From a virus: 64,000 nt of DNA. Each line of letters begins with the position of its first letter. Within the stretch, counting starts at the first letter, position 1. The stretch lies in the UHGV virus genome UHGV-0084588; one strand, given 5' to 3'. The notes under the pieces were generated by a model. It was not told the origin of the DNA. It did no database searches and saw only the letters and a list, made by a program, of their open reading frames with translations. This document shows positions 7,878 to 64,000 of the stretch, piece by piece. The translations under genes and the position numbers were made by a program.

Positions 7878-7890
7878 CAAAAAATTCTCC

Positions 7891-10800
7891 TTAATCGCGA
7901 ATGATTACCGCCTGCACTTTATTGTTGGTGTCGATAAACGACATTACGCGCTCCTTGTTAAGATAAGGAGGTATCGGTAACGCAGCGTAATCCGCCAGGC
8001 TGTTATTAAATTCAGTTGCCACTAACGCATTAAGCGTTTCGGGGTCTGAGCTGACACCGGCCAATTCCATGACGCGTACTCGATTTAATGAGGAATAGTT
8101 GCTAATATAGTCCAACAACGTACCGTAGACTTTATTCGCAGTTGCGCTGTCTGCTGTAGAGCGGATGTTGGCACGAACCTCATCCTCATAAAGTCCCCCT
8201 AAACCGTAGTAAATAGGGGTATACGGATCATTAACAATAGGTTCGATATTGAACCCGGTTAAACGGTCGACTAATGGGATTTTCTGCGTAGTTCCCCCTG
8301 CTGCCGTACAGCTTACGTATTTATCTGTCGTGGATAAAAACACCACGATAGTATACACAGTGCCAGCTAAAGTCAGCGATGCATTAAACGTTATTGCGTT
8401 GTTTGCACCACGGGTGTGGGTAAACGTTACGTCAGGTTGTAATGAACTCCACGGTGCAGCTGTAACACGCTTCGTTGGTGTGAAACCTACCACTACCGAT
8501 TTCCCGCTACCGAAGTTCAAACCGAACCCTGCGTAACAATATTCACCGTTACTGTCAGTTAAACGATAACCGCGAGTGATGAGTAATGACAACCGCATAA
8601 ACTCGCCGTCGGTGTTCTTCCAACAACCTAAAACAGTTTCTAACACTGTTCCGGTTTTTGCGTTGCTTTCTGTTTCCCAACTTACCCGCATTCCTGCGTT
8701 TTTGAAAGTCGGGAATAAGTTGTGAATAAAACCATGAAGGTTATCACTTACCCCTTTCGCATCGAAAACCCACTTTGATGCGAGCTGGTCGTATTTCACC
8801 CCGTCTAAGGCTCTATACTGTCCACCGACGACATAACGCCAATCTGCTTCACCACGTACTACTGCCTGGAGTCCCGAAGCCCAGCAGGGCGCACCTACCG
8901 TTAAGTTAGCTAACCCAAGCACTGCACGTGTCGTGGAGCGGTGAATATGCGCGTTATCGTCAGCAGCGTGATCTTTCAGTTCACGGAAATCGTCCAGCCG
9001 TGTGACGTTACGCATCTCTGTAACGAACACTTCAGAAAGGTCATTGACGCCGATTAATCCCACACGCGTCATGGTATCCGTTTCAGCCTGACTGTAGCTG
9101 TCGTGAATAATGTACTTCGCTTTGTTGTCAACAATATCAACAAAAATCCCCGCGTAGATTTCTGTATTCAACTTCGGAAAACGTTCACTGACGTTAATCG
9201 TCGTCAACGGCACGGTGTATGTTTCGCCACCGATAAAATACGTTGATGCTGGAAGTGTAACCAGTATTTTGTCTTTGACCGTAACATCAATTAAGTCGTT
9301 ACCAGACTTACCAAAACGTATAATGTCGAGACGTGCCTCCGAGTCAACACCCCCGACAGCACTTTCCAATTTTTCAATCTGGGTAGTCTGCGCCATTACC
9401 ACACTGCCATCGAGTGCTAAAGTCGCGTCGTCCACATCCAGACCAAATTTAATCAAGCCACGTTTCGCGGTGGTTGCGTTCCCGGTACCAAATGCGGTAA
9501 ATGGGTGGTGGTGTACTTTAGGCGAATATTTATCTAACTCCGCCTGCTGTGCTGTGGAGATCGGCAAATCGACATCGGGTGTATTCGCAACGTTACCCAA
9601 ACCAAAGGTAATTTTGTCGATAGTAACTGAGCTGGTAAGTTGCATGTCGTTAATGTACGATTTAGCTGCAACTAGTTTACCGGTAAACTCAGCGTCCAGT
9701 TTTTCAATCAATGCGGGGGTTGCTGCGAGATTTTCAGCCGTACCGAATTCGTCCGTTAACTGCCAACACGCTAACGTAGTAACGTCTTCGGCAACCGGAA
9801 GAATAAACGTTGCTACGAATGGCGATGCTTTAATCCCACTACCGGTAAGTTCCACCGTAGCTGTAGATGCACCGTAGAATAATCCCGTACCACCTGCAGT
9901 ATTGCCCGGCAAATACGGCGCTACCGTGGTGGGGTCTAAGAGCTTCTTACCACGCCACAGTAATCCTCGGTCATCGGGATATAGCACAAGCTGGTTGTCG
10001 CCCGCTTGCAACGTTACCGGGTTGTTACCCACGTTAACATCAGTAGAACCTTGGCCGATGAACTTAATGGATTTCGGGTCAACGACAAACTGGGCACCTA
10101 AACGGGTCCCGTCAACGACATCGGGCGCTTTCTTAATGGTAACCGTGTTACCTTTATTCCCCGAGCTAATAGTGACGTTGTCAGCAACATTACCGATCAA
10201 TGATTTAAAGTGGTGGCTATTCTCCAATGCTTCTAGTGCAGCGTCCATGTTAGTGAAGTTAACACGTGCACTATATGTCTTGCCGTTTATGGTAATAACG
10301 ACATCAAACACGTTCCCTGTGCGTTTCAGTTGAAAACGCAGCGTAAAATCCCCATCCGGTATTGCTGGATTAGGAGCTTGGGAAAGATACTGAACTTCCG
10401 GTGTGGGATTCGAAAAACCGTTCAGTTCCAACTTAACGCCGACTTTACCCGCAGAAATTTCACCTGTAAGCTGGATAAATTTTCCAGAGTTAGTACCAGG
10501 TTTCTGATAGAAACGTAGGCTAACCGTACCGACGGCTTCATTACCAGACGCTGTTTTACGTCCGGTAACAATAAAGTCAATATCTTGCAGGTTAGCAGGT
10601 ACCGCATTAAAAGAAGTGGTGAATCCACTCTTCGTTCCTGTGTAACGAAGCGCACCGTGATACCTGTGACCATTACTAACGTAGCTTTCGCTAAAACGAG
10701 GACTCACGTATTTCGACATTGACACCGGGTCAACTTCCGTCGTGAACGAAGTAAAACCGGGCAGCGTTCCAATAGTTCCGTTAGCCGTTTTCGTAGCTGA

Positions 10801-12213
10801 CGTGCGTAATAGTTTCTTTTGTGCTGTCAACGTCGCTTGTGTTGGATACTTAGCATTAACATAGTCCGTTAACTGCGGCTTCGTTTTTCCGTAAGCTAAT
10901 GCTGCATCCGACGCAATGCCGTTCAACTCTAACGCACGGATCGGACCCCACGTATCTGTGTGTGGGTTGTCCTTACGTGTAACGTGTTCGTGCGCAGGCG
11001 CATTACGATACAGCTGCTCAACTAACTGATGATACTTAACTATTAACTGGTAAACATCGTTATCGACGTCGGGCTCCGGCGCACCGGGTAAAGAACGAAT
11101 TTGAACATAATCGTTTTCAGCCGCATACCAGTTCAGGTTAATGTTCGTTTTAGACTTCAACCATTTGGCTACATTCGTTTTCGAATACCCTGCCGAGAAC
11201 TCATCAGGCGGCGTATCGACGTTGAATGTATAATCCATGGTCTGTTTATTTGTTTTTACTACGATTACGTAAACGCCGTTTCCGGGCTGACGGGTTACAC
11301 TAAAATCGATATCGTTTTTTAACTCATCGTCAGTTAAACCGTTGATTAAAGTATAATCGTAGTTTGTTGAACCACTGCCAATAGCGACAGTTAAGACCAG
11401 TGAGATTTTGCGCTGTTTTAGCTGTAACCGTAGAATGCTTGCACCGCCGTTGGCATAACAGAGCATCCAATCGATCTGCTCGTTCGGATTCAACTTTGTC
11501 ATGTCTGGCAGAATAGCAGGAATTCTGTGTTTCACCGACAGGGAATAGTCGTTAAAGGTTGTCGCGTTATAACTCAGGCTATAACGGTGGCGAGCTGTGT
11601 TGTAGGTGAAACCGCCTTTATTATCGTACGCGGCATACTGCTCGGAAGTGATAACCTTGCTATTAGCACGATATTCCAAATCCAGTGTGTTGCGTGCGAT
11701 TGGGTTAAGCCGACTCACGACTTCCCCTAACGAATCGCCTACCCCAGCAATGGCCTGCATTAGCTCCAGTTCACCTTTCCAATTCTCCCAATCGAACTGG
11801 ATATCGACCGGTGGAAAGTAAACGTCTCCGATAACGGTGTCCCACTGACACGCGGAAGGGTATTTACCTTTATTAAGCTCGCGCTCTGCGGTAATCTGCT
11901 CTTGGGTTGCTTCACCGCAACCAACGGCATGGTAATCTACAGTAAAGTTCGATTTGTATTTGTCATTAACAATCCAAATCATCCCGTGAATGAGATAGGC
12001 TGTGCGCAACATACCAGTCTCGTACGGGTGTGTAATAACGTAATCGTCGCCTAAGGTCAGTATTTTGCCGCCGCTCTTGACCACCAGGGATGTGGTGAAA
12101 AAAGGGGCGTGGGCAGGTACCAACATTCGGTATTTCGTACCAATGACGGCGACCGCTTCACCGGTTATTTTATTCCCCGGTTTTTTGAAGTGTGGGTCTA
12201 AGACGACAGCCAT
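7891..12213 (-). CDS. Tail fiber-like protein (1440 aa)
   Basis: Track ORF with ATG at 12213 preceded by TAGGAG; very large Thr/Gly/Asn-rich protein with VHHH motif; second of three tandem giant genes. Confidence 0.6.
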   Translation of the reverse strand: MAVVLDPHFKKPGNKITGEAVAVIGTKYRMLVPAHAPFFTTSLVVKSGGKILTLGDDYVITHPYETGMLRTAYLIHGMIWIVNDKYKSNFTVDYHAVGCGEATQEQITAERELNKGKYPSACQWDTVIGDVYFPPVDIQFDWENWKGELELMQAIAGVGDSLGEVVSRLNPIARNTLDLEYRANSKVITSEQYAAYDNKGGFTYNTARHRYSLSYNATTFNDYSLSVKHRIPAILPDMTKLNPNEQIDWMLCYANGGASILRLQLKQRKISLVLTVAIGSGSTNYDYTLINGLTDDELKNDIDFSVTRQPGNGVYVIVVKTNKQTMDYTFNVDTPPDEFSAGYSKTNVAKWLKSKTNINLNWYAAENDYVQIRSLPGAPEPDVDNDVYQLIVKYHQLVEQLYRNAPAHEHVTRKDNPHTDTWGPIRALELNGIASDAALAYGKTKPQLTDYVNAKYPTQATLTAQKKLLRTSATKTANGTIGTLPGFTSFTTEVDPVSMSKYVSPRFSESYVSNGHRYHGALRYTGTKSGFTTSFNAVPANLQDIDFIVTGRKTASGNEAVGTVSLRFYQKPGTNSGKFIQLTGEISAGKVGVKLELNGFSNPTPEVQYLSQAPNPAIPDGDFTLRFQLKRTGNVFDVVITINGKTYSARVNFTNMDAALEALENSHHFKSLIGNVADNVTISSGNKGNTVTIKKAPDVVDGTRLGAQFVVDPKSIKFIGQGSTDVNVGNNPVTLQAGDNQLVLYPDDRGLLWRGKKLLDPTTVAPYLPGNTAGGTGLFYGASTATVELTGSGIKASPFVATFILPVAEDVTTLACWQLTDEFGTAENLAATPALIEKLDAEFTGKLVAAKSYINDMQLTSSVTIDKITFGLGNVANTPDVDLPISTAQQAELDKYSPKVHHHPFTAFGTGNATTAKRGLIKFGLDVDDATLALDGSVVMAQTTQIEKLESAVGGVDSEARLDIIRFGKSGNDLIDVTVKDKILVTLPASTYFIGGETYTVPLTTINVSERFPKLNTEIYAGIFVDIVDNKAKYIIHDSYSQAETDTMTRVGLIGVNDLSEVFVTEMRNVTRLDDFRELKDHAADDNAHIHRSTTRAVLGLANLTVGAPCWASGLQAVVRGEADWRYVVGGQYRALDGVKYDQLASKWVFDAKGVSDNLHGFIHNLFPTFKNAGMRVSWETESNAKTGTVLETVLGCWKNTDGEFMRLSLLITRGYRLTDSNGEYCYAGFGLNFGSGKSVVVGFTPTKRVTAAPWSSLQPDVTFTHTRGANNAITFNASLTLAGTVYTIVVFLSTTDKYVSCTAAGGTTQKIPLVDRLTGFNIEPIVNDPYTPIYYGLGGLYEDEVRANIRSTADSATANKVYGTLLDYISNYSSLNRVRVMELAGVSSDPETLNALVATEFNNSLADYAALPIPPYLNKERVMSFIDTNNKVQAVIIRD

Positions 12214-14013: not shown

Positions 14014-14979
14014 TTATTGCGGAGGTGATGTCGGGCCATGTTTACCTTGGTGAATGTGAACGCTAAAGGTAATACCAGAAATAACGGCATCTTTAACCGT
14101 AAAGACACCGACGCCTTTGCCAGTACCGCCGTATTTGAAGTTCTTAGCGATTTCCAGATTACCGGTGAACATCGCTTCATTCCCTTCTTGTTTAAAGTTC
14201 GGCGTTTTAAATGTTGTCGAACTCCCTGCTTCCGTTAACCAGGTTTGTGTTTTAAACGTAACGGATTTCGCTGCTTCCGTATTGCGAACTTCGCATTTTT
14301 CATTAATTGTTTTCGTTTCCAGGTTAATAGAACGCTTTGAATAAATGAACGCATCTTCTTTGTTGATGTTCACTTTTGAAAGCATCGCATTCTCAAAACC
14401 TAAATCGTCTTCCACCGAGTTAATGTAATACTTATTCCCTTTGTGGTCAACACACTGCCACGTGCCATTTGCATTATCAAACTGAAATAACCACGCCGCT
14501 TTCTCGCCGTTCACCATACTTGTTCTTAGCGTGATATGTTTGTCAATCGTCGAGATATTCAACACATACGCATTGGACAGGTCATCCGCCATCTGGTTTT
14601 CAGGGTCAGCAGACCACGCGTAAACCGCATCCTCTAATCGCTTAACGTTAGCGAAGTTCAGATCAATCCAAAAATAAATATCGGTTTTCCCCAAACGTAA
14701 CAAGATAACGTAATCTTCTCGTTTAACGTCAGGGGAATTAATTCGGTTGGAGTTAAACTTCCACCACTTTGCTGTTATCGTGTTACCCGTCTTAATGGTT
14801 AGGTTATCTGTTGCACCAGACGTTTCATGCGTCTTTTCAGTTGCTGAAGAAACAGATTGCACCACGGTAGGGTTAGCAAAGTTGGTTTCAATTGGTATCA
14901 CTTTTACCCGATCTGTACCACGGGGTTTGTCTTCCGCGACGATACCAATTGAGAAAAAATCAACACTGGATTTCTCCAT
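14014..14979 (-). CDS. Hypothetical protein (321 aa), possibly virion-associated
   Basis: Track ORF; Thr/Asn/Lys-rich, beta-rich-looking composition; Gly-rich C-terminus (GGTGKGVGVF); no enzymatic motif. Confidence 0.5.
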   Translation of the reverse strand: MEKSSVDFFSIGIVAEDKPRGTDRVKVIPIETNFANPTVVQSVSSATEKTHETSGATDNLTIKTGNTITAKWWKFNSNRINSPDVKREDYVILLRLGKTDIYFWIDLNFANVKRLEDAVYAWSADPENQMADDLSNAYVLNISTIDKHITLRTSMVNGEKAAWLFQFDNANGTWQCVDHKGNKYYINSVEDDLGFENAMLSKVNINKEDAFIYSKRSINLETKTINEKCEVRNTEAAKSVTFKTQTWLTEAGSSTTFKTPNFKQEGNEAMFTGNLEIAKNFKYGGTGKGVGVFTVKDAVISGITFSVHIHQGKHGPTSPPQ

Positions 14980-27688: not shown

Positions 27689-28387
27689 ATGTTTCGTATC
27701 TTCTTTCTTTTACTGGTAACACTTTTCGCGTTTAACGCACAGGCGTCAACGTCAACGCCGCAAACTAAACATCAGCGTGAATTTACACAAATCCAACATC
27801 GGTTCGAAAAGGTCAGTCCGTTAATTGTGGAAATCTCACGAAAGCAAGGCGTTGATCCTAAGCTGATGATTACGCTGATTTATCGCGAATCGCGTTTTGA
27901 TCCCAAGGCTTACAACAAAAGCACACGAGCGCACAGCCTAGTACAGATGCTTCCAAGTACCAAGCGCAATCTGCTAAAGCTTTATGGAAAAGAATTAGGT
28001 CTTAGTCAGAACGCTGATTTGTATAATCCGCGTAACGCTGTTTTGCTGGCTACCGCGTATGTTAAACATCTTGAGAAGGGGTTAACCAAACGACTCAAAC
28101 GCAAGCCCACCATGGCTGAAGTTGCGTTAGCTTACCACTGGGGTGAAAGTGGCGCTCACACGCGAATCAAAAGCAAATCTCGAGCAGCACAACGAGAAAT
28201 GGCAGGCTTTATGAAAGACGCCGCGTTCTATAGCGCGAAAATCGATGTGCCTGTTGTTGTGGGCTCGGCCCCACGTCAGCTTGCGTTTGCGAAGAAAACA
28301 CCACGTCAGATTCAATTGGCGGAAGTTAGTAAAATTTGGGATACGATAAACACGAGTTTTCCAATCAATAGAGGAGTTACCCTTTGA
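27689..28387 (+). CDS. Secreted lytic transglycosylase (SLT domain), candidate endolysin
   Basis: Signal peptide MFRIFFLLLVTLFAFNAQA; SLT catalytic region LIYRESRFDPKAYNKSTRAHSLVQMLPST (E-S ... S ... A ... LxQ pattern). Alternative upstream ATG at 27662. Confidence 0.6.
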   Translation: MFRIFFLLLVTLFAFNAQASTSTPQTKHQREFTQIQHRFEKVSPLIVEISRKQGVDPKLMITLIYRESRFDPKAYNKSTRAHSLVQMLPSTKRNLLKLYGKELGLSQNADLYNPRNAVLLATAYVKHLEKGLTKRLKRKPTMAEVALAYHWGESGAHTRIKSKSRAAQREMAGFMKDAAFYSAKIDVPVVVGSAPRQLAFAKKTPRQIQLAEVSKIWDTINTSFPINRGVTL

Positions 28388-28893
28388 GCATCGTTGTAAC
28401 CGATTGGTATAAAGGCATTACAAAAGCCGCACAACTAACCGCGAAAGATATTTACGGTATCGTCCGAAGCAGCATCGAAGACGAGATTAAATCGGATGAA
28501 GAATTCGCAGAGAAACACGAATTTTACGATGCTTTACCTACAGCATTCGGTGATGACGAAGAAGAAGGTTTAGAGTTTGACTGGAATGTCAACCTTGCCT
28601 TGCTGTGGATTTGTGGTTTACGTCCAACGGTAAAAGAAACCGAAGAAGGGAAAGTCTTGCTTTGGAATTTTACCGGACAGTATAACCGTAGCCTAGTCTT
28701 TAAACAGGCGTATATGGACGCTACTGTAGAACTTCAGAAACTGCTACTTGGCGAAAACACATACTGCCAGCGTAGTTTTCTAACGATTCTGGAAAAACTT
28801 GTGTTAACACACAAAGTCTGGCGTAAAGAAGACGCCCCAGAGCACATGTTCATTTTAGAGTACGCTGTCATTCCAAATCAGCCGTTCTTCTAA
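28384..28893 (+). CDS. Hypothetical protein (169 aa)
   Basis: Track ORF with TTG start overlapping the SLT gene stop; acidic; terminator follows. Confidence 0.4.
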   Translation: MSIVVTDWYKGITKAAQLTAKDIYGIVRSSIEDEIKSDEEFAEKHEFYDALPTAFGDDEEEGLEFDWNVNLALLWICGLRPTVKETEEGKVLLWNFTGQYNRSLVFKQAYMDATVELQKLLLGENTYCQRSFLTILEKLVLTHKVWRKEDAPEHMFILEYAVIPNQPFF

Positions 28894-28959: not shown

Positions 28960-29439
28960 ATGATAAAATTCATTTGGCGTTACCCAACACGTTTTTGGTT
29001 TGTGGTGCTTGAACTGTGTATGGTTCTTGTAGCGGTTACTTTTATCGATGCACCTGCCTCACAGTTGACCATTTTCTGTCTTTTCGTGGCAGTTCCTGTA
29101 TGGGTTATTGCGAAGGCTATTAAGTTCGCCATGGTGAGTTGGGCGAATTATACGTGTCCGTATAAACCTAGACAAATCATGAACTGGTTAATGTTTATTG
29201 AAGAACGTTTACCGGCGCAACGTAAATTACTGGGCTGGTCGTCAATGTTAGATATTGCGCTAGAAACCAATGCAAAGTTCCCCGGCGCGAAAAACCCGTA
29301 TTTGCTGTTGGCGGTAATTGTTGCGCAACAAAAACTGGTAGGCGATCGTTGGTTGCCAGAAGAAGCGAAAGCGTATATCCGTAAACATCCAAAAGCTTTT
29401 TACTCGGTAGGTCAATGGCGTAACTTACCACTATTTTAA
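28960..29439 (+). CDS. Membrane protein with two N-terminal TM helices (holin-like topology, unproven)
   Basis: 159 aa; FWFVVLELCMVLVAVTFI and IFCLFVAVPVWVIAKAI hydrophobic segments; sits downstream of the SLT gene. Confidence 0.45.
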   Translation: MIKFIWRYPTRFWFVVLELCMVLVAVTFIDAPASQLTIFCLFVAVPVWVIAKAIKFAMVSWANYTCPYKPRQIMNWLMFIEERLPAQRKLLGWSSMLDIALETNAKFPGAKNPYLLLAVIVAQQKLVGDRWLPEEAKAYIRKHPKAFYSVGQWRNLPLF

Positions 29440-54378: not shown

Positions 54379-54418
54379 TGGGGTGCTTATGTAGCACCCC
54401 TAATCCTTATTCTTTTTT
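54379..54418 (+). terminator. Intrinsic terminator
   Basis: GGGGTGCT-TATGT-AGCACCCC followed by a T-rich tract. Confidence 0.65.
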
Positions 54419-54441
54419 TGTTTAAACTAATGGAGTTTAAA

Positions 54442-55275
54442 ATGGGCGAACGTTTTGACATCAACACTATTTACAACATCGTAGTTAATCCTGGTCAGCA
54501 CCTGGAAGAAGTTAACGCGCAACTGCGCGCTCTGAATGAGAATTCAGTACAGTTCGACGCTATTTACACAATTGGTGTAAACCCTAGTACCAACCGTATT
54601 CGTGTAGAAGGTAAACGCCACACCGGTAATCAAGAACTGGATATTGAAACGATTGTAGCGCCTATTAAGCTTACCGATGCCGTTTATAACGGTACGGTAA
54701 TGCATACAGAATCTGTTCTAGTTTGCACGATCGCAAAATGTGTAAAACTCGTTAAAGGTTGGTCTAAAGAACGTGGTATCCTTGACAACGGTAAAGTGGA
54801 AACACAAATCACGAAGTTCTTTGAAGAGTTTGGTGAAATCGCAACAGGTATCAGTAAAAACAAACCTGAACTGATCATGGATGGTATTGGTGATGCGTTG
54901 GTGGTTCTGGTAAACATCATCGAATTAGGGGATGCGTATTCTGGTCACCTTACAGTGGCAGAAGACTGCATCGAGTCTGGTCTACGCTTAAACGTGGAAG
55001 ATGTAGCTGAAGTTGAAGAAAATTTAAACAACGCTGGATACCCACATCAACAATACCTTCGCGCTATTGAAAGTTTTGCCACAACCTTTATGGAAGGTAA
55101 AGATCATGGTTTCGATTTCGTTAGCCTGGGTTTAGCCCATCTTGCTCGTATCGCCTTGTATTATAAACTGGATATTCGTCATTGCTTCTCTTTAGCCTGG
55201 CATGAAATCAAAGACCGTAAAGGCTATCTGAACGCCGACGGCATCTTTGTAAAAGAAGCAGACTTGGCGAAATAA
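54442..55275 (+). CDS. MazG-like NTP pyrophosphohydrolase (putative), with N-terminal extension
   Basis: EEFGEIATGI...DGIGDALVVLVNIIELGD resembles the MazG EExxE...EExGD metal-binding helix pair; ATG at 54442 after GGAG. Confidence 0.45.
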   Translation: MGERFDINTIYNIVVNPGQHLEEVNAQLRALNENSVQFDAIYTIGVNPSTNRIRVEGKRHTGNQELDIETIVAPIKLTDAVYNGTVMHTESVLVCTIAKCVKLVKGWSKERGILDNGKVETQITKFFEEFGEIATGISKNKPELIMDGIGDALVVLVNIIELGDAYSGHLTVAEDCIESGLRLNVEDVAEVEENLNNAGYPHQQYLRAIESFATTFMEGKDHGFDFVSLGLAHLARIALYYKLDIRHCFSLAWHEIKDRKGYLNADGIFVKEADLAK

Positions 55276-55284
55276 ACAAAAGCA

Positions 55285-55330
55285 CCTACCTCCGAAAGGA
55301 GGTAGGTTAACTTTCTTATTTTTTTCTTTT
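55285..55330. terminator. Bidirectional intrinsic terminator
   Basis: CCTACCTCC-GAAA-GGAGGTAGG followed by a long T tract, between convergent genes. Confidence 0.7.
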
Positions 55331-55331
55331 T

Positions 55332-55895
55332 TTAAGCGCCTGGAACAATCCCAGAAGAGATATACGTTAAACCGTCAAGTTCGGTGACTTTAATCAACTT
55401 CGAAATATCCTTACCGTCGGACGGCAGCTCTGTTAAGTACACCTCCAGCCGACCTGTCCACGCCAAAGATCTCCCATTCATGATAATGATGGTTTTATCT
55501 CTGCTGTCCGGTGCAGCTGTTGGGTTCTCAACTTCGTCGTCGGTAATCTGTAAATTGTACTTGGTGCGAAAAAGCTGTAGTACCTCAGATACCGTAGCCG
55601 CACTAACACCCGCAACAGAAACTACAAAGTCACCTAAGAGGTGCTCTAGATCCAATCGACGATAAATAACATCGATTTTACCAAACGTTTTCTGTTCAAT
55701 AATTCCCTGGACGCTAAGTTGGGTATTTAATCGCGTAAATTGAGTTTCTGGTGTTTCTACCGCAGGAATATGTGACGGTGTGCCAAAATTCAACTTATCG
55801 ATTGTAATACCTTTCTCTACCAAACCAGGATTCTTTTTTACTAATAACTCATAAACCAGTTGTTTTCCTGATTTACCTAATAGCGTATTAGCCAT
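55332..55895 (-). CDS. Hypothetical protein (187 aa), probably virion-associated
   Basis: Track ORF directly downstream of the two large minus-strand genes. Confidence 0.5.
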   Translation of the reverse strand: MANTLLGKSGKQLVYELLVKKNPGLVEKGITIDKLNFGTPSHIPAVETPETQFTRLNTQLSVQGIIEQKTFGKIDVIYRRLDLEHLLGDFVVSVAGVSAATVSEVLQLFRTKYNLQITDDEVENPTAAPDSRDKTIIIMNGRSLAWTGRLEVYLTELPSDGKDISKLIKVTELDGLTYISSGIVPGA

Positions 55896-55911: not shown

Positions 55912-58083
55912 TTAACGTGCTTGCGGCAAGAAGATGTTCGCGATCTGGCGTGCTGGAAGCACATCAAACGCAGAGTTGATAAAGCTGCCTTGTGACCATG
56001 CAGATGCCCAGTTCTGTGCCCAAATGCTTCCTTGGATCTTAGCACGCTCTATACCGTTCGTACGCTCGTACAACGTCGCTGCACCCAAACACGCCATAAA
56101 CTCACTGAATTTATTATCGTCGTCCCAAACACCGGTGTCTGTAACGATGGGCATATACATCACACGGGACAAATCGCGGATGGTAACATTGATATCACAA
56201 GACAGTGGAACAGAATCGCCTGGCCGCCAACCTAAACCACCAACACCGAATTGTAAAGACAAAGACGTTACGATAGCATTACGGAACGAGAATCGGCCTT
56301 GTGAGTAACATTCCAAATAAAACGGATGAGTGAATGATTGTTTACCCGTCGCAATTGGACATACCGCGGCGATCCAAAAGGACAGCGGCACTAGAATTTC
56401 CTGGAAGATATCCAGGTCACTTCCCGACCACGCACGTAAAGGTATTGTCAAGTTAATATCGTCACCCGAGGCATCCGAACTGTCCCACACCTCTGGGAAG
56501 TCGATGACGGATGAGTTATATAACGACATAATCCCCGTTAAATGAAGCGTATCTGCTAACCCACGCATTACGGACTTAAAGCCTGTAATTAATGAATCGA
56601 CCGCGTTGAAGCCGGTTTGCCCGCCAGACAAGTTTACTTCAAGTTGACGAGCTTTTGCCGTCATTGAGTTAACTGTACTAGAAATCTCCGGCTCTTTTGT
56701 GGAGTTAGAGAACGAACGAGAGACGGTGTCCTTCCCATCGATTCTCCAGGTCACCCACTGAGAACCGTTGTAGATTTCGGACAGCGCCTGTGCTTTAATC
56801 CCTTCAATCTGTTCGCCAACCACTTTAACAAAGTCGCCGAAGAACGTCTCCATGGTCGATTCTTTGCCTTTATCCGCCCAGGACTGTATCGTATTCTGTT
56901 GTCCCTCGGTGAGGTTACTCGCATCGGCATTTTCCAAATCCTCATTCATTTTGTTTTGGATTTCTGCCGCCTGCGCCTCTAGGTCGCTTGCCGTTCCCCC
57001 AGTTTGTAACCCTGAACTAAACGCATCGAGAACCCCTTTCTCCAGTTCATCAACGCTGTTAATATCTTTACCCGACGCGTCTTTCGCCGCATAACCACCG
57101 CGTTCGGATGCGGCTAACCGTTCCATGTCTTGCAAAGAAACTTCGTAATTTCTCACATCGTCAGAATACGAAGCTGCGCCATATGTGCTATCCAAATAGA
57201 AATTTCGTATCCGCTCGGCGAGATCATCGTCACTTGAGGACTGCTTACGAAGCTCTTTTAAACGTTGATTCTGATAGTTCGCCAAAGTTTGATAACGGTT
57301 GATCATCTTAAAGACATCGAATTCACCGTCTTTTTTCCAAACCTCCGGCAACGCTTCAAACGCATCGTCGCGCGCTTTTTTGTTTCCTTTTCCATCGCCG
57401 TCTTGACTAACCTGGAAGGTACCTAAGATACCCGTAGGAACCAAACGACGATAAACAAGTTGCGTATTCAAGATGTTCTGTACAGCACGCAAATACAGAT
57501 GCATCGTCGGTTTAACGTAATAATAACGCGACGTTTGTTTATTCAACGCTGCCGCGAGAATGCGTGGAGTAATTAAAATTACCGCAAAAGCGACAGTACC
57601 CACCGTTGCCCATATCGCTGCCGCGCCGATATAACTTGCTATCGTACGGATCATTCCCGGATAGTCACCCGTACGCGCTAAATATGCTAAGTTGGAATCG
57701 TACATATTCGCAAAGAACGCGGCCATGCCCAGATATTTCGGCTTTCCGAAACGGCAATGTACGTAAAACGAATTTTGGTTAATACTTTCGTAATAATACG
57801 TCCCTAAGCGATAAGAAGCGGTTGGCATACCGTTAGCCAACGCCTTTTTCTCCGCCTCACGATTACCGGGTCGTGCAAATGCCCCAGTTGATGGGGGGTC
57901 TGCAAACCACGTAAACTGCGGAGGGCTATTAATCGCTTTACTACCGCCCATGGTCGTATCTTCAAAAGACATCATACCGTTAGAGTAGCGTCGCAAGGCC
58001 AGAAAACGTTCATCTCGGCCTTCCAACTCTCCCTTAAATAGATTTCTGACCCAGCTTGAGTCGTTAGCTGATCTAGCGTCCAC
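55912..58083 (-). CDS. Hypothetical protein (723 aa) with internal hydrophobic segments
   Basis: Track ORF; TM-like stretch IASYIGAAAIWATVGTVAFAVILITPRILAAAL; downstream of the giant SLT protein gene. Confidence 0.5.
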   Translation of the reverse strand: MDARSANDSSWVRNLFKGELEGRDERFLALRRYSNGMMSFEDTTMGGSKAINSPPQFTWFADPPSTGAFARPGNREAEKKALANGMPTASYRLGTYYYESINQNSFYVHCRFGKPKYLGMAAFFANMYDSNLAYLARTGDYPGMIRTIASYIGAAAIWATVGTVAFAVILITPRILAAALNKQTSRYYYVKPTMHLYLRAVQNILNTQLVYRRLVPTGILGTFQVSQDGDGKGNKKARDDAFEALPEVWKKDGEFDVFKMINRYQTLANYQNQRLKELRKQSSSDDDLAERIRNFYLDSTYGAASYSDDVRNYEVSLQDMERLAASERGGYAAKDASGKDINSVDELEKGVLDAFSSGLQTGGTASDLEAQAAEIQNKMNEDLENADASNLTEGQQNTIQSWADKGKESTMETFFGDFVKVVGEQIEGIKAQALSEIYNGSQWVTWRIDGKDTVSRSFSNSTKEPEISSTVNSMTAKARQLEVNLSGGQTGFNAVDSLITGFKSVMRGLADTLHLTGIMSLYNSSVIDFPEVWDSSDASGDDINLTIPLRAWSGSDLDIFQEILVPLSFWIAAVCPIATGKQSFTHPFYLECYSQGRFSFRNAIVTSLSLQFGVGGLGWRPGDSVPLSCDINVTIRDLSRVMYMPIVTDTGVWDDDNKFSEFMACLGAATLYERTNGIERAKIQGSIWAQNWASAWSQGSFINSAFDVLPARQIANIFLPQAR

Positions 58084-58090
58084 GTTTTAC

Positions 58091-58124
58091 CTCTAAAAAA
58101 AACGGGGGTAGTTTCCTACCCCCT
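58091..58124 (-). terminator. Intrinsic terminator downstream of the giant SLT protein gene
   Basis: GGGGGTAG-TTTC-CTACCCCC with U8 on the minus strand. Confidence 0.65.
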
Positions 58125-58131
58125 GTTGTTA

Positions 58132-61100
58132 TTACGCCGATTTACGACTAACGTCGAGTTGTGGCGCTGGTTGGGTTATTGACACGTTACGTGACGCCGA
58201 ACCCGGAGCGGTTGACGCAGGGTTAGCCGGTCCGTTTTGCATAGCCTGTGGTCGCTGACGAAGAATTGTTACAATCTCTTTCAGGTAGCCCGCAGACTCT
58301 TTTGCAACCGCCAGCTGCTGTACGCTGATCGGATCACCGCTGTTCACTGTAGAGCCGGTCTGTGCATCGGACGTTACTGTTGGTGCAGGGCGGACTGATT
58401 TCTCCATCTGCTGTCTAGCACCTTCTTTTACTTTAGCAACATCCTCTTCGGCCAGGCCGTCAGCACGAGCGTTTTGACCCACCGTATCTACAACAACTGA
58501 CGCATCACTCGGTGTAACGTCGCCGCCAGGGCTCGGCACAGCCGGACCACCGCCCGTCGCAGCTTTAATGTCATCGGCCCCCATTGCACCTTTATCTGCT
58601 AAGGCTGCATCACGATTCGCCTCGTTCGCAGCTGGCAGGTTATCTGCCGGGCCTGTGATAGACGGATCGTTAGCAGCGCCCGCAGCGATGGCTGGGGATG
58701 ACGGCATTGGCGTTACGCCTGTCGTCAAGTCTTTCACCGATGCCTGATTAGCCGCAATTGCGTTTGTTCCTACTGCACCAATCTTACCACCCATGATGTT
58801 GAGCACTTCATCCAAACTACGCAATTTTCCATTCTTGTAGAAAATTGTGCTGTTTGCCGCGATTTGATCGGCCGATGCACCACGCGATGACGGACCGTTC
58901 GGATCACGCTTCCATTCTTGCAGGAATTTCTTACCGCCACCTTGTCCTAAGAAGTGGTAGAGGTAAACTGCTGCACCAGGAGGATCGATGCCACCTAAAT
59001 CCTTTCTGGCTTTCTCGATATTGTCACGAATATGGCGGACACCAAGCAGAGTATTCGCCCACGGGTCATACTGGTCGGTTTGCGGGATACCGTAACGTCT
59101 AGCGTAAGCTTTCATCTGCGCACCCCAGGTATCGTTGATGAACTGGAACAAGCCAGCCGCAGAACTTCCTTTAGCTTTGATGCCGTATCTAAGTCCTGAT
59201 TCTGCTTGTGCCATTCCCAGAGCTAACGCTGGGGGAACACCCATCATCTTCGCTACATCTGTAATCAGTGCCGCAACCGCATTCAGGTTAGGCTTCAATC
59301 CGTCGCCCAACGTTGAAATTGGATACTTAGCCGCTAACGTTTTATAATCACCGTCTTGCATCTCGCCAAGCTTCACACCGAAGTTACCGGTACTAAACGC
59401 GGCGTAATTCTTAGCTCCCATCTGACCATAAGCACCAGCCAAATCGTTTGGCGTGCCGTAATTCCCACCGTCATTCGCTGCCGGTTGAAGCAGATCGCGA
59501 TAAGAGGAGGAAGTATTCATCTGTTGCCGAGGTGGTTGGTCCTTCTCGTCATCGGTCAAGAACATCTGAGTCGCACGATCTTTTCGCTGCCAGTTCACAC
59601 GGAAACCAGCAGAAGGCGTAGCACGCAGCGTTTTACGTACTGCCAAATCAGCTTCCTTAGACAGTTCTTTCAGATTCTCTAACTCCGTCGCAACTGAACC
59701 AGCGTCAGTGTTAGCATCACCCCCTAACGGGTTAAACGGTACCTCCCACACCGATTGGCGAATACCCCCTTTCAGGTTGTATGCACCACGCATCATCAGT
59801 GCGATTTCATACAAGAACCCGCCTGTAACGCGTAGGTCCATCGGATCGGCAGCAGGGACATAACGTTTCACTCCAACCACGTACGTCATGAAGACAGGTA
59901 AGAAGCGGTTATAGAACCAGTTCTTGTACCGATCTTCTTTTGGCCCACCAATAGCGTCAGGTGCAATCACCGCAATCGCACGTTTCCAGTCTCCTTTATA
60001 CGTACAACTTTTCACATCAGTGTCTTGCAACACTTGACGTTCTAGGAGCGTATAGAGGTTACGGGTTGTTTGAGTAATGCTCACAGCACCATAAGCTTTC
60101 AACCTTACAGATTCCAAATCACGGAGATCGGTTTCTTTAGGTAAGCTTCTCCAGTCAACTTGAACCTGAACTTGTTCGGTGCCGTCTTCCCAACCTTCAA
60201 CCTTTGCAACCTCTTTGTTGCGTTCCGCATCCGCTTGAGCCAACGCTTGGGACGATTCCGCCACAGAAGCAACTTTGTGTCCTTCGGCCACGCCGCCTGT
60301 AGCATTAACATCCTTACGTTTTTCATCACGACGCATGTTAATCGAACGAAGCACGCGTTCTTGTGCTTCAACGACTTCTTCACCTGACAAAAACTCGGCC
60401 GGGGTAAACGTTACGAAATCCCACGCTTTAGAGAACCAACCTTGGTTAACCTTGCGGGGGTCTTCTAATGCACGGAATGCAGGTGCGTCTTTCGACATCT
60501 TCATTTTGTTAAAGATGTTCAACATGTCTGCTTTCGACACTTTCGCTGGATTACCGACGTCAGCTAACGCGATATCGTTATCCATCGATTTCAGTGCCGT
60601 AATCCAACGTAAGTAAATAGGCACAAAACGTTGTAGCATAAACGCACTAAACGCCAGCATTTCGCCTTTGTCTTCTACGTTAGTACCAAACCCTTCGGCC
60701 AGTTTCTTCACGTCGTCACCGGACAAACCACGCAGCTGCGCTTGACCGTTCTCTGTATAAGAGATATACGGTTTCAAGTTGTCTTCTAAATAACGTGCTT
60801 TTGCACCGTCGTCGGAAGACCATTCATCGTGGTCTCTAAAACCGTACTGCGCCAATCGCATGTTATCCAGATACTGGGCATTTACACGGGTTGCAGTTTT
60901 ATACGCAAACCAAGACAGCGCAGCGCCTGCAGCGACCAAGCCAATAATCGGCCAGCCAACCGCAGTTACCACTGCAGATGCCGCTGTCGCGACAGCACTC
61001 ACCGCAGGGACAGCCAAACGGGTCACAGCAAACTTACCAACGTTCCACAACGCTTTGCCTGCAAATCCAACCGGCTTGAAGATTCCCCATTTTGCAACTT

Positions 61101-64000
61101 TACCTAAGATTGAACCCACTGTGCCCAAAATACTCACAATCGGTCCTACCAACGGCAGTCCTTTAAGGAAATCCATTACCCCACGTTTACCACCTTTCTT
61201 CTCAGCCTCTTTCTTAGCCTTTTCCTCTTCCTTAGAACGACGACGGCGTCGGAAGAACTGGAAGTAATCGCGTTTTTCATCACTGGCAGGCGGCTTATTG
61301 CGTTGGCCGAACTTACTGAACATAGTTCTTAACAAACCATCCGAAGCACCTGCTTTTTCCGCAGAATCACGCATGGTGTTAAACCATGACATTTCCTGAA
61401 GATTAACCATTCGGTTCAGGCGTTCCAGTAAAGCTGACCCAACGCTACGGGCTTTCTGTTTCCCTTTATTAATCACACGACCAGCGCTATCCATTACGGT
61501 GTCTAAGTCTTCTTTTGCCGCATCGACGATACGTGTTTTAGACACCTTGCCTCTTGCGTAGATGTGTTGACGGTAAAACTCAGCAACATCGTCATCGCGT
61601 CCTGCTAAACGACTCTCCATTCGATAACGTGTGCCAATATCGAAACGTGGATCACGGAAAGTATCGACCATATCGCTTGCACGACCACGGAAACGATCAA
61701 ACCAACCACGTGCGGCACCGCCCCAACGAGAAAGACGATCGCCTACCGCACCGCGATAACGGGACATTCTGTCACGCATCCGACCACGCCAATCCCGGAA
61801 CCCCTGAAAATGTTCACGGAACCCTTCACGTATGTCTTTAGCACGTTGGAATAATCCTTTAACTGAGCTGGCTCCCGTATTCCGTTCCATCTGTTCTGTC
61901 CAGGTATCATCTTCTGGTTCACCTGGCAATCTCCGGTTAAGGAGTTTGTAGATACGGATTAAGATGTGGTTAGTTTTACGGCCGTTCGACCATGAGAACA
62001 CACTAAACCCACCACCAGAACCCCCTTCCTTACGGTTCTGCCACCAACGTGTCAGAGGGTTATCAGAAGCCAACTCTTTGAGCTTCTCAAACCCGCGTTT
62101 TGCATTGTTCCACAAACGTGCTGGCATTCCCGTTACACGGGAAATCATGCTTTGTAAACGGGTTTTCTCTGCGCCCTCTGGAACCTCATTTAACCACTCA
62201 CGTGCTTTCTCGAACAACGAAGCCGCTTTAGGTGAAATGAAGCCTAAAAGTTTCTTCGGTAAAGTCACAGCTTTGTTTACCGCCGTTCCTGCTTTCCCAG
62301 AAATGTACTGGAAAAGCGCTTGAACTTTACCGCCTTTGTAGAATCGCAGTTTACCTGCGGCAGCCAAATCAGCAGCAGATAAGATTAAATTACCCGCTTC
62401 ATCGACAATATCACGTCCCAGTTTAATATCGTCGAGGGTTTTAAGTTGAATCAGCTTCTCAGTTTTCGGGTCAGCCTGGTAATATTCCCCAGCTTCTAAA
62501 CGACTTCCTTGTAATACGACGTTGCCACGTTCATCGTAAATATCACGAACACCTAAAACGCCTTTACCGAAAGCTACAGCAGAATTCCAACCTGTCGATA
62601 GAGTACCTGTTACTAACCCTTTCAGTCGGCTAAATACACCGGGTCCTTCGGAGGAGCCGCCTGAGAATTTCCCACGGATAAAACCACCTAAAGCCTGCAG
62701 ACGATCTTTCCCACGTAGGAACAGATTCTTACCAAAACGCCCTACACCTGAACCGGTATCCCAAAGCACCCCAGCCCAACGGCGTAACAAGCCTGTCTCG
62801 CCTAGCACAATACGTTTGCGTTTACGACGACGTTTACGACCCGAGTCACTCGAACTTTCAGTTTCGTCACCGTCATCACGACTACCGCCTAAACTGGCTA
62901 GGAGAATACCTTCCTCATCCATGTTCTTAACGTGTTTGAGGATATCTTGCACTGTGCTAGATTCGGGCTGTTTACGTACAGCATCAATCAAACGGTCGAA
63001 TTGCTGTTCCAACCCGGCGTTCGTATCTGGACGACTGCTTAATAGTTCAACAAAGTTAGTGGATTTCTCTCCATAAAGTACCGCAGCGAGTTGACGTGCG
63101 CTTAAACCGCGACCACGACCACCTTTTCCACCGCCACGCACATTGGACAGTTCTTTGTCTTCAAAGCTCGGCTCTGCACCTGCACCCATCCGACGCAAGT
63201 AATCACCCAGCGCAGAACCGTTTTGCAATTTACGCTGAATCTCTTGCTCACGGGTTAACGAACGTCCAGAGCGGGTCTTACCCATCGACAGGTCATTAAA
63301 TAACGTATAGGGATCGTTAATGTCCTTATCGACCTCGAAAATGTCTTTCTTCGCATCGTATTTAAAAATACCGGAATCACGAAGTGCATTCTCGCCGTAA
63401 ATCACAGACGCAGCATCAACAGTGTCCTGACGTGCGCGAATCGTTGACTGGATAGCGGCGATTTTGTTTGAAATCGCGTTGCTCAATTCATGGTGTCCAC
63501 CAACCAGTTCCGCAGAACGGGCTTCTAAAACACCCTGAATCGCTTCCACAGCGTTTGCGTTCATGTACCGATACATGTGCATCGGGTCTTTCAATAAAGA
63601 CCCTACATCGAACGCTTTCCCTTCCGAGGCACGGGATTCGATGTAGTCTGCTAACGCCTGACGTGTTTTCCGATCGAGCGTTTTATCTTTATCGATAAAG
63701 TCGACTGTATCGTTGATGTAAGTCTGTAAACGTTTACGCTGATCGTCATTAGCAACCGCTTTACGAACACGATTACCAATAACTTTACGATCCACCATAC
63801 CGCGTGTGGTCAGGTCATAAACCTGATCGTGGTGTTCACCATATCCACGACGAATAGATTTGTTAATCTCGGACAGTAACGTCGGAATAACTTCAGTGAT
63901 GCTGAGGTAAGCTTTACGATCGAATTTCGCCGCCGCAGAAAGAGATTCCGCAGAGCGATCGTCTAATGCTAACGTTTCGCGACGTAGCGGGTTAACCAAT
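58132..64000 (-). CDS. Giant virion-associated protein with TM segments and lytic transglycosylase (SLT) domain, N-terminus beyond window (>=1955 aa)
   Basis: Frame stays open to the window end (the track M is a TTG codon). Hydrophobic block LPLVGPIVSILGTVGSILG...AVSAVATAASAVVTAVGWPIIGLVAAGAALSWF; SLT motif MGVPPALALGMAQAESGLRYGIKAKGSSAAGLFQF near the C-terminus; Arg/Gly-rich repeats. Confidence 0.65.
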   Translation of the reverse strand, partial: LVNPLRRETLALDDRSAESLSAAAKFDRKAYLSITEVIPTLLSEINKSIRRGYGEHHDQVYDLTTRGMVDRKVIGNRVRKAVANDDQRKRLQTYINDTVDFIDKDKTLDRKTRQALADYIESRASEGKAFDVGSLLKDPMHMYRYMNANAVEAIQGVLEARSAELVGGHHELSNAISNKIAAIQSTIRARQDTVDAASVIYGENALRDSGIFKYDAKKDIFEVDKDINDPYTLFNDLSMGKTRSGRSLTREQEIQRKLQNGSALGDYLRRMGAGAEPSFEDKELSNVRGGGKGGRGRGLSARQLAAVLYGEKSTNFVELLSSRPDTNAGLEQQFDRLIDAVRKQPESSTVQDILKHVKNMDEEGILLASLGGSRDDGDETESSSDSGRKRRRKRKRIVLGETGLLRRWAGVLWDTGSGVGRFGKNLFLRGKDRLQALGGFIRGKFSGGSSEGPGVFSRLKGLVTGTLSTGWNSAVAFGKGVLGVRDIYDERGNVVLQGSRLEAGEYYQADPKTEKLIQLKTLDDIKLGRDIVDEAGNLILSAADLAAAGKLRFYKGGKVQALFQYISGKAGTAVNKAVTLPKKLLGFISPKAASLFEKAREWLNEVPEGAEKTRLQSMISRVTGMPARLWNNAKRGFEKLKELASDNPLTRWWQNRKEGGSGGGFSVFSWSNGRKTNHILIRIYKLLNRRLPGEPEDDTWTEQMERNTGASSVKGLFQRAKDIREGFREHFQGFRDWRGRMRDRMSRYRGAVGDRLSRWGGAARGWFDRFRGRASDMVDTFRDPRFDIGTRYRMESRLAGRDDDVAEFYRQHIYARGKVSKTRIVDAAKEDLDTVMDSAGRVINKGKQKARSVGSALLERLNRMVNLQEMSWFNTMRDSAEKAGASDGLLRTMFSKFGQRNKPPASDEKRDYFQFFRRRRRSKEEEKAKKEAEKKGGKRGVMDFLKGLPLVGPIVSILGTVGSILGKVAKWGIFKPVGFAGKALWNVGKFAVTRLAVPAVSAVATAASAVVTAVGWPIIGLVAAGAALSWFAYKTATRVNAQYLDNMRLAQYGFRDHDEWSSDDGAKARYLEDNLKPYISYTENGQAQLRGLSGDDVKKLAEGFGTNVEDKGEMLAFSAFMLQRFVPIYLRWITALKSMDNDIALADVGNPAKVSKADMLNIFNKMKMSKDAPAFRALEDPRKVNQGWFSKAWDFVTFTPAEFLSGEEVVEAQERVLRSINMRRDEKRKDVNATGGVAEGHKVASVAESSQALAQADAERNKEVAKVEGWEDGTEQVQVQVDWRSLPKETDLRDLESVRLKAYGAVSITQTTRNLYTLLERQVLQDTDVKSCTYKGDWKRAIAVIAPDAIGGPKEDRYKNWFYNRFLPVFMTYVVGVKRYVPAADPMDLRVTGGFLYEIALMMRGAYNLKGGIRQSVWEVPFNPLGGDANTDAGSVATELENLKELSKEADLAVRKTLRATPSAGFRVNWQRKDRATQMFLTDDEKDQPPRQQMNTSSSYRDLLQPAANDGGNYGTPNDLAGAYGQMGAKNYAAFSTGNFGVKLGEMQDGDYKTLAAKYPISTLGDGLKPNLNAVAALITDVAKMMGVPPALALGMAQAESGLRYGIKAKGSSAAGLFQFINDTWGAQMKAYARRYGIPQTDQYDPWANTLLGVRHIRDNIEKARKDLGGIDPPGAAVYLYHFLGQGGGKKFLQEWKRDPNGPSSRGASADQIAANSTIFYKNGKLRSLDEVLNIMGGKIGAVGTNAIAANQASVKDLTTGVTPMPSSPAIAAGAANDPSITGPADNLPAANEANRDAALADKGAMGADDIKAATGGGPAVPSPGGDVTPSDASVVVDTVGQNARADGLAEEDVAKVKEGARQQMEKSVRPAPTVTSDAQTGSTVNSGDPISVQQLAVAKESAGYLKEIVTILRQRPQAMQNGPANPASTAPGSASRNVSITQPAPQLDVSRKSA

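Follow-up and report, generated by a model that had tools for sequence, protein, structure and literature searches.

The window analysed here is a stretch of 64,000 nucleotides (nt) from the virus genome UHGV-0084588, and its end is occupied by a giant open reading frame (ORF) on the minus strand (58132..63999), identified by translation, BLAST and PHROG 3201 as the orthologue of SPN3US gp239 and phiKZ gp181. This ORF probably encodes most of a giant protein of the tail lumen, presumed to be the tape measure with an entry lysin, of an SPN3US-like jumbo myovirus. Orthology and conserved gene order underlie this assignment, together with an intact catalytic domain and a hydrophobic block that is conserved among relatives. 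All coordinates refer to the window, and residue numbers to the ORF within it; full-length protein numbering is obtained by adding 418.

The giant ORF is unbroken over 1955 codons plus a stop codon at 58132-58134. By our own arithmetic, the chance of a stop-free run of this length is (61/64)^1955, about 1e-41. The ORF extends past the window end, and the listed TTG 'start' is merely the first in-frame codon of the window. As stated in a first-pass annotation of this DNA, the protein is therefore longer than 1955 amino acids (aa). Proteins of 2373 aa with 99% identity to the giant ORF (e.g. P0001), derived from Logan assemblies, are present in a large protein database and give the complete length; the window part corresponds to residues 419-2373, and the N-terminal ~418 aa lie outside the window. 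The missing 418 residues as well as the upstream genes are provided by contig L004, whose DNA is 97.7% identical to the window here. The GC content of the giant gene is 0.52 (positions 58001-60000) compared with a window average of about 0.44-0.45, and the GC skew is strongly negative. Both are consistent with a Gly/Ala/Arg-rich composition and minus-strand coding, not with foreign origin.

The nearest characterised protein is SPN3US gp239 (YP_009153533, 2372 aa), which is 57% identical over all 1955 aa, aligned onto its residues 421-2372. The two proteins are collinear throughout the ORF, nearly equal in total length (2372 vs 2373 aa) and share the hydrophobic block, the module pair, the SLT domain and the C-terminal tail described below. 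PHROG 3201 is matched with an E-value of 0. phiKZ gp181 (NP_803747, 2237 aa) aligns over the C-terminal ~855 aa (E 3e-34, 25% identity) with the catalytic Glu in register. It shares both RxxxYG/RFxP modules and the SLT domain, but is 136 aa shorter, and its N-terminal half is hardly alignable by BLAST. Goslar gp204 (YP_009820915, 2252 aa) matches in the N-terminal domain (E 3e-19) and in the hydrophobic block plus modules (E 2e-8), while the SLT region is unaligned; in its place, Goslar gp204 carries a GH19/COG3179-type lysozyme-like region (weak Pfam match to GH19; note in the database record).

A tblastn search of 50,697 phage genomes yielded matches to the giant protein in 245 records, Pseudomonas phiKZ-like phages among them. 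Full-length collinear matches at 55-57% identity are found in the SPN3US group of jumbo phages, namely SPN3US, SPAsTU, Proteus phage 7 and the Erwinia phages Asesino and phiEaH2; a second Erwinia group shows 44% identity. In a megablast search of the window against the phage genomes, coverage was just 1-14% at 70-84% identity, with no close sequenced isolate. As DNA similarity to sequenced phages is almost nil, the window stems from a lineage without a close sequenced isolate, and the protein-level identity to SPN3US gp239 combined with essentially no DNA match indicates a different genus-level lineage. Judged by its sequence, the source is a new SPN3US-like (Chimalliviridae) jumbo myovirus. 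The giant protein is a new member of a known and widespread family, with unannotated copies in public assemblies.

Orthologues of the giant protein have been characterised experimentally. SPN3US gp239 (259.1 kDa) is called the tail tape measure protein; when the wild type was compared with tailless and tube-mutant particles by mass spectrometry, it was found in virions, absent from tailless particles and depleted in the tail-tube mutant (PMC5105663, PMC10052503). In phiKZ, orf181 is essential, with no transposon insertions in 6714 bp, and was designated 'likely tape measure' (PMC12676376). phiKZ gp181 is muralytic (60,000 U/mg) and lyses P. aeruginosa cells whose outer membrane has been permeabilised (PMC5380687, citing Briers 2008). 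In work on orthologues, the protein is a low-copy tail component, and domain-containing fragments degrade peptidoglycan. By analogy, tail location, essentiality and muralytic activity would be expected for the giant protein as well.

The SLT (lysozyme-like) domain occupies ORF aa 1575-1742 (58774..59277, minus strand), with the codon of the catalytic Glu1600 at 59200-59202. Pfam SLT (PF01464) is matched at aa 1580-1666 with 31.1 bits against a gathering cut-off of 21.3, and likewise in the full-length P0001. The motif GMAQAESG...AAGLFQF (here GMAQAESGLRY), from which the domain had first been recognized, is present. The domain is not C-terminal, as had been assumed: it lies at 81-89% of the ORF and is followed by 213 mostly Ala/Gly/Pro-rich, low-complexity residues. 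Among PDB sequences, the SLT region matches phiKZ gp144 (3bkh; 9xps chain S) with E 1e-18 as a single sequence and 1.3e-51 as a family profile, and it adopts the lysozyme-like three-dimensional fold. In the alignment with gp144, Glu1600 of AQAES falls on chain position 115, within SIES. Residue E115 of gp144 is reported to be the catalytic one (Fokine et al. 2008). Conservation was assessed in an alignment of 24 homologues and in a second one of 19 distant representatives at 18-33% identity. The E-S, G-L-F-Q-F and T-W motifs are invariant at their E, S, G, F, Q, F, T and W positions in the former, and E, G and Q are invariant in the latter. The region is accordingly predicted to be a lytic transglycosylase domain with the catalytic Glu-Ser intact. 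phiKZ gp144 itself has 260 aa, carries a peptidoglycan-binding domain at its N-terminus and serves as endolysin and neck wedge (PMC13250141), whereas here the SLT domain is embedded in a 2373-aa protein.

The wall-degrading module is an SLT domain in 13 of the 19 distant representatives and a GH19 domain in five of them. Together with the weak GH19 match in Goslar gp204, this pattern indicates a conserved scaffold with an exchangeable enzyme, as is usual for virion-associated lysins. A few of the 19 additionally contain VanY, Peptidase_M23, CHAP, DUF5675 or Peptidase_S74 domains. A like logic, a tube-lumen protein with a cell-wall-degrading module, is known from a class of tape measure proteins (TMPs; PMC5380687, PMC6024856). 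Examples are T5 Pb2, TP901-1 Tal/TMP, phiIPLA35 TMP and the mycobacteriophage TMPs. The giant protein differs from these in being 2-3 times larger, in belonging to a contractile tail and in having no detectable sequence relationship to them. Muralytic TMPs of that class have membrane-active segments and exit the tail first.

A membrane-active segment of this kind is predicted at ORF aa 940-1032 (60904..61182, minus strand), where a Gly/Ala/Val-rich hydrophobic block forms a candidate membrane-inserting region. With a 19-residue Kyte-Doolittle window, peaks of 1.8 (aa 940-969) and 2.0 (aa 995-1032) were obtained, which bears out the hydrophobic block described in the first-pass annotation; it is the sole strongly hydrophobic stretch of the ORF. 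The two clusters are parted by a KWG(I/L)FKP motif, and a highly charged RRRRRSKEEEKAKKEAEKKGGKRG stretch precedes the block. The block is kept in all 23 SPN3US-like homologues, among which AVGWP is invariant, and is also found in Goslar gp204 (Kyte-Doolittle maximum 1.91). In relatives of the pEa_SNUABM_9 group, the part preceding the block has about 80 additional residues, so that the block begins near full-length residue 1432 instead of 1350. Its predicted local distance difference test score (pLDDT) in AlphaFold2 is about 30.

To describe the overall layout of the giant protein, two AlphaFold2 models were used, one covering ORF aa 1-939 (maa10b23058cc; 64% helix, mean pLDDT 54) and a second with 52% helix and a mean pLDDT of 63. 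They show several compact domains and a strand content of 4-5%. The conserved N-terminal domain, with the motifs QRKxLELQ and IVKNTALPDYAK, lies mostly beyond the window. The N-terminal/middle region (ORF aa 1-939; 61183..63999, minus strand) is the candidate ruler part. It has low-complexity Gly/Arg/Lys linkers and modelled helices of up to 66 aa, but confident prediction is confined to aa 30-250 and 490-550, and no structural neighbour of the model was found in the PDB. The composition table reveals an Arg-rich patch with 22 Arg per 100 aa at ORF aa 701-800 (61600..61899, minus strand). The Arg/Gly-rich repeats proposed earlier turned out to be compositional bias: Gly makes up 9.8% of the ORF and Arg 7.9%, and patches like GGGKGGRGRG and RKRRRKRKR occur, but self-BLAST of the window protein, SPN3US gp239 and phiKZ gp181 gave no internal match, and the sole array reported by Tandem Repeats Finder on the DNA is a 12-nt unit in 2.2 copies at 61199-61224.

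Downstream of the hydrophobic block, two helical modules are predicted with pLDDT values of 76-91 and a matching order of secondary-structure elements. Module 1 (ORF aa 1042-1182; 60454..60876, minus strand), delimited by AlphaFold2 and the alignments, contains the invariant R1048-x3-YG ... R1124-F-x-P signature; module 2 (ORF aa 1287-1442; 59674..60141, minus strand), delimited by hhalign and AlphaFold2, contains the likewise invariant R1299-x3-YG ... R1365-F-L-P. The module 1 signature is invariant across the family including phiKZ, also among the 19 distant representatives, and the R-x3-Y-G/R-F-x-P motif pair occurs at equivalent positions in this phage, SPN3US, phiKZ and Goslar. The two modules match each other in hhalign with E 1.1e-4 and a probability of 56% (phiKZ cross-match E 3e-4), and from sequence and model together they look like a weak, ancient duplication, the sole internal one in the giant protein. 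With the module region alone as query, HMMER returned 311 representatives at 50% clustering, nearly all of them giant proteins. Of the top 150, 139 reach 2000 aa or more (median 2299 aa, interquartile range 2245-2423), and the modules are located at about 60% of the protein length throughout. Because the matches are nearly all giant and the position is constant, the module pair is a signature of the gp181/gp239 family. It occurs in this family only and has no structural neighbour in the PDB; in searches of all PDB sequences with phmmer and the 24-sequence family profile, the SLT region was the sole match. The linker before the SLT domain is disordered. The Ala/Gly/Pro-rich, low-complexity C-terminal tail (ORF aa 1743-1955; 58135..58773, minus strand), defined by translation, consensus and AlphaFold2, has a few helices and mostly pLDDT values below 50, and its extreme C-terminus is conserved (...L-x-VSRK-x-x).

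The genomic neighborhood of the giant gene is conserved among this phage (L004), SPN3US, phiKZ and Goslar. The shared order comprises virion RNA polymerase (vRNAP) beta genes on the opposite strand, the giant gene and a gene for a protein of 660-740 aa. In phiKZ, gp180/gp178 are encoded upstream of gp181 and gp182 downstream; in SPN3US, the vRNAP beta genes are located upstream on the other strand and gp238-like and gp237-like genes downstream, as here. The third gene of the shared order encodes a 723-aa protein in the window (55912..58083, minus strand), identified by BLASTP, PDB matches and PHROG 3181 as a baseplate-hub spacer or tail-tube-initiator ring protein. It is a homologue of phiKZ gp182 (BLASTP E 3e-35), Goslar gp203 and SPN3US gp238, and matches the PDB chains 11lx_H (Goslar gp203, 'tail tube initiator complex protein', E 1e-57) and 9xqs_K (PHIKZ182, E 1e-51). 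The giant gene thus adjoins a gp182/gp203-type ring gene, whose product lies directly under the tail tube. This arrangement matches T4, in which gene 29 (tape measure) is followed by genes 48 and 54. In phiKZ, gp182 makes up a hexameric spacer ring, a barrel of 24 beta-strands placed between gp88, the tube-initiator ring, and gp101, the hub (PMC13250141). The two-layer tube initiator of Goslar, built from gp203 and gp62, was likened by the authors to T4 gp48 and gp54 (Goslar preprint), and SPN3US gp238 is an essential tail protein (PMC5105663).

The first-pass annotation had offered an ejected channel protein or a hydrolase-bearing tape measure for the giant ORF. The data support this proposal: the second option is the literature's name for the orthologue SPN3US gp239, and the first describes the action expected after ejection and is hence compatible with it. 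During assembly, a few copies would be anchored by their C-terminal part at the hub and at the tube-initiator rings. The tube would then polymerise around the largely helical N-terminal ~1350 residues, which may help to fix tail length. Once the sheath has contracted and the spike is gone, the protein would exit the tube with its C-terminal end first, and the SLT domain would open the peptidoglycan locally. The Gly/Ala-rich block and the two RxxxYG/RFxP modules may then insert into or act at the inner membrane, priming a conduit through which DNA and ejected proteins pass. In this scheme, the control of tail length, the orientation inside the tube and the membrane insertion are inferred.

Several observations weigh against a tape measure. 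The functional evidence comes from orthologues and applies to this protein by analogy. Neither gp181 nor gp204 is mentioned in the text of the phiKZ atlas (PMC13250141) or of the Goslar preprint, both cryo-electron microscopy studies of 2026; the place of the protein in the virion has therefore not been directly seen. There is no match to a curated tape-measure family, as Pfam at E<=1 gives the SLT domain alone and NCBIfam nothing. phiKZ gp181 has no convincing transmembrane segment, only a weak Gly/Ala patch with a Kyte-Doolittle maximum of 1.25 vs 2.0 here. The AlphaFold2 models comprise several globular domains, not a single long coiled coil. Simple ruler arithmetic fits poorly as well: 43 tube layers of 37.73 A in phiKZ amount to ~1622 A for 2237 aa, or 0.73 A per residue vs ~1.5 for a helix. 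The whole-protein ratio is 0.73-0.77 A per residue, so that the protein has about twice the length a helical ruler needs. Furthermore, protein length does not scale with tail length between the two phages, since Goslar has 46 layers for 2252 aa and phiKZ 43 layers for 2237 aa; their N-terminal parts do not scale either. A tail-assembly chaperone pair with a programmed frameshift is absent upstream of the giant gene, and opposite-strand vRNAP beta genes are found 29 nt away instead. T4-type myoviruses are likewise not known to have such a pair.

Because the arithmetic fits poorly for both the whole protein and its N-terminal part in the comparison of phiKZ with Goslar, the main rival is a cargo or effector of the tail lumen that is not a ruler. 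Such a protein would reside in the tube and hub, be ejected first and deliver the hydrolase and the membrane-active block, with tail length set otherwise. A ratio of half the helical-ruler value and the lack of scaling (PMC13250141, Goslar preprint), the multiple folded domains with long disordered linkers and the missing match to curated tape-measure families all agree with this alternative. The free exchange of the enzyme module (SLT 13/19, GH19 5/19, plus VanY, M23 and CHAP) is effector-like as well. However, the cited literature describes no other tape-measure candidate for these phages, the gene adjoins the tube-initiator ring gene as in T4, and the length of the family is tightly bounded although identities are just 18-33%. 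The ruler may also be just part of the protein: the ~1350 residues before the hydrophobic block, if they were the sole ruler, would span ~2000 A, which is the stated tail length of phiKZ. An effector without ruler role is regarded as unlikely, and a tape measure with an entry lysin is preferred.

An internal head (core) protein of the T7 gp16 type, ejected to form a trans-envelope channel, would likewise combine an SLT domain, very large size and hydrophobic segments. The giant gene adjoins the genes of head-packaged vRNAP subunits, and PHROG 342 ('internal virion protein with endolysin domain') is matched in this window, by the small SLT enzyme described below. The giant protein, however, does not match PHROG 342 and carries its SLT domain near the C-terminus rather than the N-terminus, and the SPN3US orthologue is lost when the tail is missing and follows the tail proteins in tube mutants (PMC5105663, PMC10052503). 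Its occurrence in isolated tails or tail-only particles has also been reported. A core protein therefore has only a small chance of being correct. The older view of phiKZ gp181 as central baseplate spike, listed in a review table as 'needle-like cell-puncturing device, putative trimer' (PMC5380687), is hardly credible, since it is contradicted by the 2026 structures: the phiKZ spike is gp164, the tip gp163.1 and the hub gp101 (PMC13250141), the Goslar spike is gp13 and its cap gp48. The AlphaFold2 models of the giant protein, with 4-5% strand, also contain no beta-helix and no oligonucleotide/oligosaccharide-binding (OB) fold. Most GenBank/RefSeq records of the family, as well as PHROG 3201, carry the label 'tail fiber protein' ('putative tail fiber protein' in >30 phage records), but a fibre has practically no probability for a protein modelled as mostly helical, with a hydrophobic block and an enzyme domain, with no fibre, receptor-binding or beta-rich domain in Pfam or in the models, and with the phiKZ fibres assigned to gp131-135 (PMC13250141). 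The label looks like a propagated misannotation, apparently inherited from record to record and supported by neither sequence nor models.

A second, secreted SLT enzyme had been reported at 27689..28387 on the plus strand. This 232-aa protein matches Pfam SLT with E 4e-15 and is 29% identical to the SLT domain of the giant protein (E 9e-10). Its N-terminus, MFRIFFLLLVTLFAFNAQA followed by STS, is a canonical Sec-type signal peptide, strongly hydrophobic and cleavable-looking (between AQA and S), where phiKZ gp144 has its peptidoglycan-binding domain. Homologues in SPN3US-like phages are annotated as 'putative endolysin', and the enzyme is a probable endolysin on this evidence. Neither a signal-anchor-release domain nor a peptidoglycan-binding domain is present. 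The two following ORFs (28384-28893 and 28960-29439) match PHROG 8114 and PHROG 20030, and one of them begins with hydrophobic segments. Neither a holin nor a spanin was identified. The division of labour suggested for the two transglycosylases, entry for the giant protein and lysis for the small enzyme, is reasonable given the signal peptide and the annotation of the homologues. The pair parallels phiKZ gp181 and gp144, though gp144 doubles as a structural part of the neck.

The giant gene and the two genes downstream of it had been assigned to one operon. They are indeed located on one strand with gaps of 48 and 16 nt. However, the 48-nt gap after the giant gene contains a strong terminator-like hairpin, GGGGGTAG-GAAA-CTACCCCC followed by T8 (58104..58123, minus strand), so that 'one operon' means read-through transcription at best. 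A GC-rich hairpin is found at the same place after SPN3US gp239 (L001 ~11866-11884), where the T8 run is missing, and after phiKZ gp181 (L003 ~14058-14081); the position is conserved, the sequence is not. The hairpin between the giant gene and the ring gene may act as a terminator, an attenuator or an RNA-stability element. On the other side, the start of the giant gene is separated by only 29 nt from that of the divergent vRNAP beta gene (L004 9971-10001; SPN3US, L001 4711-4741), and therefore one or both of the promoters must overlap coding sequence or be very compact.

The 723-aa ring protein also matches the PDB chain 36za_rp, 'Capsid decorator gp77' (648 aa, E 7e-56). This label clashes with the initiator and spacer labels; either the chain is a paralogue with another role elsewhere, or one of the labels is wrong. 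The second downstream gene encodes a 187-aa protein (55332..55895, minus strand) that matches Pfam DUF7941 with E 2.2e-22 and PHROG 2935 ('virion structural protein'). For DUF7941, a family restricted to chimalliviruses, a role as long filaments fixed to the baseplate periphery has been proposed (Goslar preprint). The 187-aa protein was also considered as counterpart of phiKZ gp184, but shows no similarity to it. A bidirectional terminator-like hairpin (55284..55307) marks the end both of this minus-strand gene set and of the MazG-like gene that converges on it from the plus strand (54418-55275). Elsewhere in the window, two adjacent paralogous giant virion structural proteins of 1394 and 1440 aa are encoded on the minus strand (3696-7880 and 7891-12213). 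They match PHROG 8078 and 7557 and have PHROG 2163 and 7449 regions in common; they probably belong to the gp131-like family of baseplate/fibre paralogues of SPN3US and phiKZ.

For annotation, the value of these results is modest: the window is part of a new SPN3US-like jumbo phage, and the 'tail fiber protein' label of the family is corrected. The family comprises the largest chimallivirus protein, which is essential in phiKZ, absent from the 2026 virion structure texts and about twice as long as a helical ruler needs. A further, quite unlikely possibility is that its C-terminal ~1000 residues (hydrophobic block, module pair and exchangeable muralytic domain) are no part of a ruler but a chimallivirus-specific, ejected device for remodelling the inner membrane. 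If so, the device would insert into the cytoplasmic membrane after the SLT domain has opened the wall, and would help to form a conduit into the early-infection (EPI) vesicle or seed it. The Goslar preprint raises the question of how the genome is injected into this lipid-bounded vesicle, which receives it, and no link between the tape measure and the EPI vesicle was found in the literature. The conserved architecture of N-terminal domain, hydrophobic block, duplicated module, swappable enzyme and low-complexity tail provides mutagenesis targets for envelope crossing by jumbo phages. The residual interest of the family lies in its structure, its excess length, its family-specific duplicated module and a possible role in bringing the genome of vesicle-forming jumbo phages through the inner membrane.

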